From the UHGV virus genome UHGV-0179848: a stretch of DNA of 39,611 nt; one strand, 5' to 3'. The stretch is from a virus. How positions within the stretch are numbered: the first letter of the stretch is position 1; the number at the start of each line of letters is the position of its first letter. The translations under genes were made by a program, and so were the position numbers. Of this stretch, positions 2,831 to 4,912 are shown one piece after another. The notes beneath the pieces were generated by a model that did not search any database, had not been told where the DNA came from, and was given only the letters and a program-made list of their open reading frames with translations.

Positions 2831-4912
2831 TCATTTATTCACATTAGACGGAGAGACCGCATCGTTAACCTGCACTTTAATTGTGTCAAACAACATCGGG
2901 TAAGTGGCTGCATTGCCGGTAATATCGGTCAGTGTCAGTTGATCCACCGTGAACCCGGCATTCACCCACTTCACAAGTTCAAATGGTTCACCATCTTTCC
3001 CGTCCAGAACTGGGGTAACACTCATGCTATTACCACCTGCAAACCGTAACGAGAGCGTATGCCATTCATGATCAAAGACACCATACGATCCTATCTGTTG
3101 ACTTCCGCTCCCTTTGTGATACATCACATTCAGGTTAGCTGAATCCGTTTGCAGGAAACATGATGCGATGAGGTTATTTTTTCCGTCACCGTCAGGCCAG
3201 TTACTTACAGCCCAGTAAATACCAACACCATACCGGTTTTCCGCAATGCCCGCATCCGATGGAATTTTGAAACGGAGGGAAATATCACCACCTCTGGCGA
3301 ACAAATCCCTGGCATTATCAGCTGTGATCGGATGATACATTTTCCATGAGGCCATGCTGTTAGGCGCTTTATTCACCCTTAACGCTTTGTTACCACCTGT
3401 TGCAGCAGCATCCGTGACAAAGGTTGCTTTTCCGGAAGCCGCATTCCACCCCTGATCTTTCATTGGTTCTGTCGGGGCGTTTGCAGTATACGAAACGATG
3501 ATCTTCATCTGATCGCTCACGTCCTTCACATCCCCGGTGGGTTCAGGCTCACTCTTACCGGTATCAGAATGTTCTGTTGCCGTTACACCGCGGAAGAAAG
3601 CAGATTTTTGTCCTGACAATGTCAGAATCGCTGTTGCCAGACGGTCTGAAATAATTCCACGGCGCGCCCATGAACTGAAATGGCTTGCCCTGTCGTTTGA
3701 TGTCCAGTTAGTCGAATCGCGACTTATGGCACCATAATAGCCAATACCTGGAATATCCGGGTCTTCATCTGGATTATTTGTCGGTACATTTTTTCCATTT
3801 TCATCCACAACAAATGGAACAAAGTGAATGTTCTTTGCTTCATTAGCATATTTGCCATAAACAGCTTTGTATTGTTCTGGATATGTATTTTTCCAGTAAT
3901 ACGTCGTATCACCACAGATCCACGGTACAGAAGCCATATCTCCGGCTGGAGATTGCGCAGAAAAAGCCGAAAGTTCACGCCTGAATGTTTCGACCATCGT
4001 CACAAACAGACCGGAATGTTCAGCATGTTTTCCTGTTTTCAGATCATTCTCGCCCTGCATCCAGACAACGGACAGGAGAATATTTCTGGGGTTACTGCTG
4101 AGAGCCGCTTTTGTTCGGTTAACAAGATCGCTGAACAAAGGTTTATTGACTCCCCAGCGCGATGATGCAGATGTTGCTCCGGAAGCTTCAGTAAATTCAC
4201 CATCAGCACCATCGGTAAATGCAGAGCCTCCTCTGGCACAGGGAACCAGAAGGATACCAGCCTCTTCCGGGATAAAGGGCAGGAGTTTTTTTGCAATATG
4301 CAAACCCTGGCCGACACAACCATACTGACCTTTTGAAAGATCTGCTTTTGGATGATTATGGTTACTCATATCCAGCACATCATGAAGACAGTGATCTGCC
4401 GGAATTATATCGTTGTAGGCGCATTCAACCCCGCCAGGTGTAACCGTGTTACGGCGAGCCAGCTGTTTAATACGTGGATCAGGTCGATCATAGGTATCAG
4501 GCAAAGGAAGACCTTCACCAAATGACGATGCATTCGACTGACCAGCAATAACAACCACGTAATACCAGGACGGAGTTTGACCTGCAACTTTATCTCCTGC
4601 TGAGGAAGTGTATGTTTCCGCATTGTTCCAGTCTGACGGTTCAGTAGTACCGGCAACATCAGCACTTAACGGAATGACAGCACCAATACCCGCTCCGGTA
4701 ATTTCCACGTTCGGATCACCGGATACTGGCCTTACCCACAGGCAATCCCGTGTATTAAAACTGATGAGACAGTCAGCAAATGTCATACCTCCTTTCGTTT
4801 CAGCCGGAGGAAAGGGAGCCTCAAGAAATGCCGCTGTACCACCGGAAACTTTAACGGTAAAGTTTCCGGGCATTGATGATAGTTGAACCCATTTGGACGT
4901 CATAATATTCAT
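2831..4912 (-). CDS. Cargo protein: SGNH/SASA-type (sialate-O-acetylesterase-like) esterase domain fused to a C-terminal LamG/ConA-like lectin domain
   Basis: VVIAGQSNASSFGEG resembles the GQSN catalytic-Ser block, WMQGENDL and DRASHF resemble further SGNH blocks; C-terminal EWHTLSLRF...SMSVTPVLDGKDGEP resembles a LamG/concanavalin fold; no N-terminal signal peptide evident. Confidence 0.65.
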   Translation of the reverse strand: MNIMTSKWVQLSSMPGNFTVKVSGGTAAFLEAPFPPAETKGGMTFADCLISFNTRDCLWVRPVSGDPNVEITGAGIGAVIPLSADVAGTTEPSDWNNAETYTSSAGDKVAGQTPSWYYVVVIAGQSNASSFGEGLPLPDTYDRPDPRIKQLARRNTVTPGGVECAYNDIIPADHCLHDVLDMSNHNHPKADLSKGQYGCVGQGLHIAKKLLPFIPEEAGILLVPCARGGSAFTDGADGEFTEASGATSASSRWGVNKPLFSDLVNRTKAALSSNPRNILLSVVWMQGENDLKTGKHAEHSGLFVTMVETFRRELSAFSAQSPAGDMASVPWICGDTTYYWKNTYPEQYKAVYGKYANEAKNIHFVPFVVDENGKNVPTNNPDEDPDIPGIGYYGAISRDSTNWTSNDRASHFSSWARRGIISDRLATAILTLSGQKSAFFRGVTATEHSDTGKSEPEPTGDVKDVSDQMKIIVSYTANAPTEPMKDQGWNAASGKATFVTDAAATGGNKALRVNKAPNSMASWKMYHPITADNARDLFARGGDISLRFKIPSDAGIAENRYGVGIYWAVSNWPDGDGKNNLIASCFLQTDSANLNVMYHKGSGSQQIGSYGVFDHEWHTLSLRFAGGNSMSVTPVLDGKDGEPFELVKWVNAGFTVDQLTLTDITGNAATYPMLFDTIKVQVNDAVSPSNVNK

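Follow-up and report, generated by a model that had tools for sequence, protein, structure and literature searches.

A predicted NanS-p-type sialate O-acetylesterase with an exchangeable esterase-lectin cassette behind gin of a Mu-like prophage

The virus genome UHGV-0179848, analysed here as one stretch of 39,611 nucleotides (the window, to which all positions refer), is almost the whole of a Mu-like prophage. Its minus strand carries, closely behind the DNA invertase gene gin, a gene for a protein of 693 amino acids (aa) that is predicted to be a sialate 9-O-acetylesterase with a carbohydrate-binding module, belonging to the NanS-p family and thus to a known family rather than representing an orphan. 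An initial annotation made from the sequence alone had proposed an SGNH/SASA-type esterase fused to a lectin-like region and had regarded it as cargo foreign to Mu. The open reading frame (ORF) of that annotation was recovered on the minus strand and, together with the cassette in which it resides and the two small genes downstream, is organized as follows:

2831..4912, minus strand: NanS-p-like sialate O-acetylesterase gene, 693-aa ORF with a full-length match to phrog_143 (E 1.6e-260)
4673..4912, minus strand: N-terminal module (aa 1–80), small, predicted all-beta, phrog_4772 type, in the place of DUF1737
4577..4672, minus strand: linker 1 (aa 81–112), rich in Ser, Thr, Ala and Gly, holding the left cassette breakpoint at ~4617 (alignment and sliding identity)
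3620..4576, minus strand: SASA/SGNH esterase domain (aa 113–431), placed by the 3pt5 NanS match, Pfam SASA and the motif positions
3500..3619, minus strand: linker 2 (aa 432–471), highly variable
2864..3499, minus strand: C-terminal lectin-like jelly-roll domain (aa 472–683), DUF6645, placed by the 6yp6 match and Pfam DUF6645
2616..2801, minus strand: gene for a small membrane-type DUF1378 protein (Pfam E 2.2e-23), in the swapped cassette
2335..2580, minus strand: DUF826 gene (Pfam E 2.9e-15), conserved Mu-like backbone
2590..4620, no strand assigned: exchanged cassette of ~2 kb (esterase domain, lectin domain and DUF1378), with flanks of 94–100 % and an interior of 37–77 % nucleotide identity to the O157:H7 allele introduced below

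The middle part of the protein (aa 113–431) matches NanS of Escherichia coli (YjhS, PDB 3pt5) at E 7.8e-114, and Pfam SASA (PF03629) is recognized at aa 119–316 (E 3.9e-12) with a score exceeding the gathering threshold, bearing out the proposed esterase. Hallmarks of SASA enzymes are a Gln beside the nucleophilic Ser of Block I, an (H)QGE motif in Block III which forms an inverted oxyanion hole, and a His in Block V (PMC9487903). The motifs pointed out in the initial annotation are indeed present, i.e., GQSN as Block I (aa 124–127, with Ser126), WMQGE as Block III (aa 284–288) and DRASHFSS as Block V (aa 407–414, with His411 in SHFSS, aa 410–414); Block II is GGS (aa 228–230). The Gln beside the catalytic Ser (GQSN) and the QGE of Block III (WMQGE) mark the domain as SASA/CE6 (PF03629). 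The C-terminal part (aa 472–683) matches the crystallised C-terminal domain of a phage NanS-p (6yp6, E 2.6e-51) and contains Pfam DUF6645 (PF20350; aa 540–647, E 1.5e-32), in agreement with the suggested lectin-like region. Proposed sugar-site residues in the lectin domain of NanS-p are Y510, Y515, Y540 and F611 (PMC10462455); all four aromatic positions are kept in the window protein (Y561, Y566, F586 and F654), one of them with a Tyr-to-Phe exchange (F586, Tyr in phi24B).

By tblastn, 347 phage records, almost all from lambdoid phages converting to Shiga toxin (Stx) production, match aa ~110–683 at ~56 % identity. The esterase domain shares 56 % identity with NanS and 70 % with lambdoid NanS-p, the lectin domain 47 % with tested lambdoid NanS-p. 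Since the domains match NanS and NanS-p, the SASA and sugar-site residues are kept and DUF1378 and DUF826 follow downstream, the protein is assigned to the NanS-p family, although an N-terminal DUF1737 and a location in the lambdoid late region (Q/stx to holin S) are both missing. Chromosomal NanS, a single-domain protein of ~326 aa encoded in the nanCMS operon, is a poor fit to a three-domain protein of 693 aa in a prophage. Lambdoid NanS-p copies have been reported to de-O-acetylate sialic acids of mucin and to be expressed in connection with induction (PMC8319020, PMC10462455). The NanS-p family (PMC10462455), the co-travelling DUF1378-DUF826 genes and the separate module in the first ~110 residues had been missed by the initial annotation. 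Its statement that no signal peptide is visible holds, no hydrophobic core being found in the first 45 residues (maximum 10-aa Kyte-Doolittle mean 0.86). A single-sequence AlphaFold model of the whole protein reached a predicted local distance difference test (pLDDT) score of 35 and was discarded.

Regional comparison was based on the common O157:H7 Mu-like allele (WP_010917876.1, 679 aa), presumably the Sakai Sp18 copy. On the protein level, window and O157 allele are 89 % identical in the N-terminal 112 aa (99 % in an 80-aa core), 70 % in the esterase domain and 48 % in the lectin domain. The O157 allele and lambdoid NanS-p are unrelated in the N-terminal part (~22 %), but share 80 % identity in the esterase and 78–80 % in the lectin domain. 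On the nucleotide level, a sliding comparison yielded 94–99 % identity across gin, the intergenic region, the module and the start of the linker, dropping at ~4617 to 58–77 % in the esterase domain and 37–67 % in linker 2, lectin domain and DUF1378, and returning to 99–100 % from ~2586, in DUF826. The DUF826 protein shares 94 % identity with the O157 Mu-like copy versus 43 % with the lambdoid one, and the DUF1378 protein 56–58 % with O157 Mu-like and lambdoid copies alike. Identity changes abruptly at ~4617 and ~2586, from which it follows that a segment of ~2 kb comprising esterase, lectin domain and DUF1378 has been exchanged while the Mu-like backbone around it stayed nearly identical; the left junction falls in the linker that follows the module.

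Of 5426 complete E. coli genomes, 205 (about 4 %) contain the module DNA, in a total of 246 copies, and the annotation is always 'DUF6645 domain-containing protein', the name that the Prokaryotic Genome Annotation Pipeline (PGAP) also assigns to an identical copy of the window protein (WP_062850926.1). The window's own cassette allele is rare (~4 of the 5426 genomes). The N-terminal module, the position behind gin and DUF826 constitute the conserved backbone of a Mu-like prophage lineage. Accordingly, the label of non-Mu cargo is retained for the esterase-lectin-DUF1378 part, which is an exchangeable cassette, but has to be given up for these backbone elements. An alternative in-frame ATG at 4903 (MTSKW...), yielding a 690-aa product, is preceded by AGGA 8 nt upstream, a better Shine-Dalgarno spacing than at the first ATG, and corresponds to the annotated start in the O157 allele; the true product may thus comprise 690 aa.

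The N-terminal module differs entirely from that of lambdoid NanS-p. DUF1737 (PF08410), located at aa 3–53 in the NanS-p of lambdoid phage F451, is not found by Pfam in the Mu-like alleles, aa 1–118 of the window protein have no Pfam match even at E ≤ 10, and identity to the lambdoid N-terminus over the first ~112 residues is ~18 %, i.e., at noise level. DUF1737 has been described as one helix plus three strands (preprint 10.64898/2026.04.10.717836), whereas an AlphaFold (AF2) model of the module, derived from a 21-sequence alignment, is all-beta (pLDDT 79.7, predicted template modelling score 0.71). A profile search of PDB sequences returned noise only and hence no solved relative, and a BFVD search returned only small uncharacterised phage proteins. 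The module itself matches phrog_4772, a 79-aa family without assigned function, weakly (E 0.0021, aa 3–71 to profile positions 8–77 of 79). A transitive link is provided by standalone proteins, which are found by the profile of the fused module (E 1e-25 to 1e-6) and in turn match phrog_4772 at 9e-15 to 9e-19. Divergent homologues of 23–36 % identity keep W8, P36, W59 and R61, and the module core differs between alleles by six synonymous and one non-synonymous change (pN/pS ~0.06, from small counts). Low pN/pS, kept residues and the confident AF2 model indicate that the module is a real domain under selection.

The module is also rare, as a HMMER scan of 1.84 billion representatives yielded only five matches, among them a Salmonella protein (27 % identity) in which it is likewise fused to an esterase. 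Another of the five, a 979-aa repetitive fibre-like protein (P0008; E 1.5e-4, over the linker region), was dismissed as a low-complexity or chance match. A word-index homologue search with the N-terminal 112 aa retrieved partial E. coli copies only; a profile search with the module found 22 proteins, mostly standalone ORFs of 77–80 aa from Salmonella. In four Salmonella prophages of Mu order with varied host flanks (L024–L027), the invertase gene is followed by a 79-aa module, an ILEI protein, a DUF1353 protein and the prophage end. The ILEI/GG-lectin-type protein (183 aa; L024 8001–9179, also in L025–L027) has a domain that also occurs in giant phage tail proteins, and the DUF1353 protein of these prophages, labelled 'tail assembly chaperone' in PHROG, is also found after the esterase in L006. 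Another prophage type (L029–L031) has the order fibre, tfa, module, 332-aa protein, DUF4376 tfa-like protein and DUF1353, and in Pseudomonas phage 15b the module lies upstream of a 487-aa collagen-repeat fibre-like protein. Thus, the module is portable, joined to the esterase in Mu-like prophages of E. coli and Salmonella and standing alone before lectin- or fibre-like proteins elsewhere.

In related prophages without gin, the esterase gene directly follows the tail-fibre assembly gene, which speaks against the earlier placement of the gene outside the fibre operon. The Salmonella Mu-like prophage L006, a relative of the window's, encodes a 784-aa module-esterase-lectin protein at this position and baseplate proteins 77–82 % identical to those of the window. 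Three prophage copies in one Salmonella isolate (IMG taxon 2744054454) share esterase and lectin parts of 89–96 % identity and differ in their N-termini: in one the module is fused, in another a stop codon separates it from the rest, and the third has a phrog_895-type sequence; a fourth prophage type has a short N-terminus only. The split form is seen in L007 (1267–3627), where a stop codon terminates the module as a 77-aa ORF of its own, immediately ahead of an esterase ORF of 703 aa. Recurrence of the 77-aa protein in several Salmonella assemblies (P0009–P0011) shows this arrangement to be a lasting one, not the product of one sequencing error. Near-identical Salmonella-type esterase-lectin proteins are encoded in L009 (6714–9074), with a phrog_895-type N-module of ~60 aa and a position after the invertase gene, and in L008 (9956–12073), with a short N-terminus of ~40 aa and directly after tfa. 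All of these proteins have a C-terminal extension of ~90 aa which is missing from the E. coli proteins.

The window gene is part of a block of ~3.5 kb that separates gin from com/mom; the surrounding Mu-like prophage is apparently complete and has inserted into zraS. That this block is absent from Mu, as initially annotated, was verified: 94 bp separate the stop of gin from the start of com in phage Mu, and the DNA homology of the window to Mu ends at ~5036 (inside gin) and restarts at ~1181 (inside mom). Further products encoded in the window are transposase A and B, terminase, portal, protease, major head protein (18933–19880), sheath, tape measure, endolysin, baseplate proteins (7585–9218), tfa (6047–6589) and fibre (6689–7585). 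Its Mu-like character is evident from the phrog_310 transposase with phrog_296, from gin/com/mom and from varied host insertion sites. The features around the esterase gene are the following:

5003..5563, minus strand: gin-type DNA invertase gene (Pfam Resolvase and HTH_7, phrog_125, 71 % nucleotide identity to Mu gin)
4913..5002, minus strand: intergenic region of 90 bp between gin and the esterase gene, with a weak hairpin overlapping the gin stop (5021–4996)
2302..2329, no strand assigned: strong bidirectional terminator-like hairpin with an 11-bp stem, closing the nanS-p/DUF1378/DUF826 unit
2060..2260, minus strand: 66-aa ORF without family match
1204..1404, minus strand: com, translational activator of mom (Pfam Zn_ribbon_Com; PGAP coordinates of the identical copy)
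513..1250, minus strand: mom, DNA modification (Pfam Mom E 3.2e-77, 72 % nucleotide identity to Mu mom)
385..470, no strand assigned: right end of the Mu-like prophage with two direct repeats (409–432, 444–467); matches elsewhere begin at 384/385 beside different host genes
50..384: fragment of host zraS

An ORF at 50–406 reads the sensor kinase ZraS (MRFMQRSKDSLAKWLS...) and then enters phage DNA at ~385. The two direct repeats at the prophage end are 79 % identical and look like transposase-binding sites. In other strains, an identical element resides in bcsA and a related one (O157:H7) in a gene for a transporter of the major facilitator superfamily (MFS). Such variation of the insertion gene (zraS, bcsA, MFS transporter gene) is the pattern of a transposable phage and indicates recent transposition. 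A gene on the opposite strand (1519–2097, plus; phrog_26524, function unknown) is intact in O157:H7 (154 aa), but frameshifted or truncated in the window (ORFs at 1519–1839 and 1867–2097; a pseudogene according to PGAP in the identical copy), and contains an imperfect direct repeat of 53 nt (1684–1736, 1763–1815). The segment 1873–2305, which includes the 66-aa ORF, has no counterpart in the O157 Mu-like prophage and represents a second small mosaic difference between the backbones. Upstream of com, a cluster of GATC sites lies in a hairpin (AATCGATCGACAAAAACGATCGATT, 1448–1472, within the region 1440–1500) and recalls the Dam-methylation control region of Mu mom, where GATC sites are followed by GATTATGCCCCAATAACC; the C-box dyad of Mu is not conserved upstream of com in the window. 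Beside gin, a sequence of 34–38 nt (5625–5662) is 91–92 % identical to both boundary repeats of the Mu G segment, and a C-terminal fibre fragment is located at 5689–6012 on the opposite strand; the tfa and fibre genes lie at 6047–7585. An invertible host-range segment therefore appears to be present, albeit much shorter than in Mu.

Probably, then, the gene provides an apparently complete Mu-like prophage with a catalytically competent sialate 9-O-acetylesterase of the NanS-p type, joined to a lectin-like domain and released at lysis. Since a signal peptide is lacking and the prophage has an endolysin together with a full set of structural genes, the protein would leave the cell only upon phage lysis. 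Outside, it would de-O-acetylate gut mucins carrying 9-O-acetylated sialic acids, or free Neu5,9Ac2, so that sialidases and E. coli could use the sialic acid, as has been demonstrated by experiment for lambdoid NanS-p. The exchangeable enzyme-lectin-DUF1378 cassette, of a kind known from lambdoid Stx phages, is joined by a flexible linker to the backbone-encoded beta-barrel module of ~80 aa, which may serve as a portable adaptor or partner domain for proteins directed at surface glycans at the distal end of tail-fibre clusters. Several points weigh against this interpretation. We infer the activity on Neu5,9Ac2 and on O-acetylated sialic acids of mucin from relatives, and the divergence of the window protein from NanS and tested NanS-p, in particular in the lectin domain, means that its substrate preference could differ. 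No convincing promoter was found upstream of the gene, a sigma-70 scan performing no better than on shuffled sequence, and a search upstream for a Mu-type C-protein box (TTAT-N6-ATAA) gave one match at chance level, located inside the ORF; the timing of expression can therefore only be inferred. Moreover, Mu gin is expressed in the prophage state, and since only a weak hairpin separates gin from the esterase gene 90 bp behind it, read-through expression in lysogens is possible. The adaptor role of the module, finally, is a putative one.

Virion association and lysogenic conversion, between which the initial annotation had not decided, both find elements of support in published work on lambdoid NanS-p. 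Display on the virion is conceivable, but we regard it as rather doubtful: the N-terminal module would dock on the Mu-like particle (head, baseplate or fibre), and esterase and lectin domain would serve the phage in adhesion to or movement through O-acetylated sialomucin, or in receptor destruction. This is compatible with the proposed enzyme identity, the difference being who benefits and where the protein sits. A precedent is gp84, the NanS-p of phi24B, described as a capsid decoration protein that is found in purified virions, binds via its N-terminal DUF1737 as a hexamer on capsid hexons and is self-processed at the linkers (10.64898/2026.04.10.717836). This preprint is, however, not peer-reviewed, DUF1737 is absent from the window protein, and the module has neither fold nor sequence similarity to DUF1737 or any solved virion protein. 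That the N-terminus goes with the phage backbone and the enzyme part changes is a pattern typical of tailspikes and fibres and renders an anchoring role of the Mu-type module attractive; the unrelated N-termini in front of nearly the same esterase-lectin part in one Salmonella isolate, the gene position directly after fibre/tfa genes in prophages without gin, and the standalone modules upstream of fibre- or lectin-like proteins and tfa-type chaperone genes point in the same direction. A correspondence between N-terminal type and virion (baseplate) type was looked for and not borne out: the module is found alongside at least three baseplate types that are unrelated to each other, as well as in a Pseudomonas phage, and L009 and L024 have related baseplates but different N-termini. 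Virion display is therefore kept as a rival rather than as the main explanation. More tentatively still, one may speculate that NanS-p-type esterases in general are virion-displayed glycan processors rather than mere nutrient cargo, attached by interchangeable N-terminal anchors across phage morphotypes (DUF1737 on lambdoid capsids, phrog_4772-type beta-barrels and phrog_895-type sequences on Mu-like myoviruses), and that the same anchors, as separate subunits, would mount other lectin- or fibre-like proteins. The window protein would in that case be a component of the Mu-like particle which binds and de-O-acetylates sialic acids of mucus for the benefit of the phage.

A lysogenic conversion enzyme, expressed by read-through from a constitutively active gin in the uninduced lysogen and acting inside the cell on imported Neu5,9Ac2 as a supplement to chromosomal NanS, is unlikely. 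It would agree with the orientation of the gene on the same strand as gin, which is active in the Mu prophage, with the short distance and a hairpin that lacks a proper T-run, with the missing signal peptide and with the strong terminator closing the unit after DUF826. A lectin-like domain and long flexible linkers, however, best fit an extracellular enzyme acting on polymeric glycans, and the gene follows late tail-fibre genes in relatives without gin; lambdoid nanS-p is, moreover, a late gene with increased expression upon induction (PMC10462455). We consider it highly improbable that the protein acts on a polysaccharide of the bacterial surface, for instance O-acetylated O-antigen, capsule or polysialic acid, as a receptor-modifying, depolymerase-like accessory in host recognition. 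The divergence of the window allele from tested NanS-p (esterase 70 %, lectin 47 %) and the vicinity of host-range genes (G segment) would allow for it, and some SASA members act on acetylated xylan instead of sialic acid (PMC9487903). Yet the closest characterised relatives matched with high significance are all sialate esterases, and the lectin domain retains its sugar-site aromatics. Furthermore, sialylated surfaces are not a known trait of the Stx-producing E. coli (STEC) that host these prophages. Release of a sialate esterase at lysis remains the preferred explanation.

Public genomes have contained the gene for years, the O157 allele having an early RefSeq accession, but no paper that connects NanS-p with Mu-like phages turned up in a full-text literature search. 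Previous studies count and characterise lambdoid copies, and NanS-p surveys cover DUF1737-type proteins only (PMC10462455); a second, Mu-like carrier lineage in ~4 % of complete E. coli genomes now stands beside them. Because DUF1737 has been assigned a capsid-docking role in the recent preprint, the alternative N-terminal modules offer a direct test of whether virion display is general among NanS-p esterases, and the module provides a handle on the uncharacterised small phage family phrog_4772.

Compared to lambdoid NanS-p of Stx phages (933W L0105/z1466; phi24B gp84, i.e., vb_24B_21), the window protein has related esterase and lectin domains with the aromatics kept, is likewise devoid of a signal peptide and is similarly prophage-borne in STEC. 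The order nanS-p, DUF1378, DUF826 is also that of the lambdoid Stx2a phage F451, there ahead of the holin gene. Differences concern the N-terminus, an unrelated all-beta module taking the place of the capsid-binding DUF1737, the carrier, a transposable Mu-like myovirus, and the gene position, which is between stx/Q and holin S in lambdoid phages but after the gin and fibre genes in the window. The catalytic domain is homologous to E. coli NanS (YjhS, 3pt5) over its whole length, with the GQSN Ser, QGE and His blocks kept and, as in NanS, without an Asp at the usual DxxH position of Block V (PMC9487903); unlike the single-domain NanS of the nanCMS operon, the protein is phage-encoded and has additional N- and C-terminal domains. 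The O157:H7 Mu-like allele WP_010917876.1 agrees in architecture, position and backbone (N-module 99 % protein identity, gin and DUF826 94–100 % DNA identity) and its prophage has likewise transposed into varied host genes, but it harbours a different cassette of ~2 kb (DUF1378 58 % aa identity), with an esterase and a lectin domain nearer to lambdoid NanS-p than are those of the window allele. With the phrog_4772 proteins (77–80 aa), the window protein shares an apparently all-beta domain of ~75 aa with conserved W, P and W-x-R and the location at the distal end of tail-fibre clusters; these proteins differ in being standalone ORFs with other partners (ILEI lectin-type protein; 332-aa protein plus tfa-like gene; collagen-repeat fibre-like protein) and in lacking the esterase fusion. 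The enzyme itself is an ordinary member of a known family, in an architecture whose new part is the N-terminus; the module in place of DUF1737 and the sharply bounded cassette deserve further attention.

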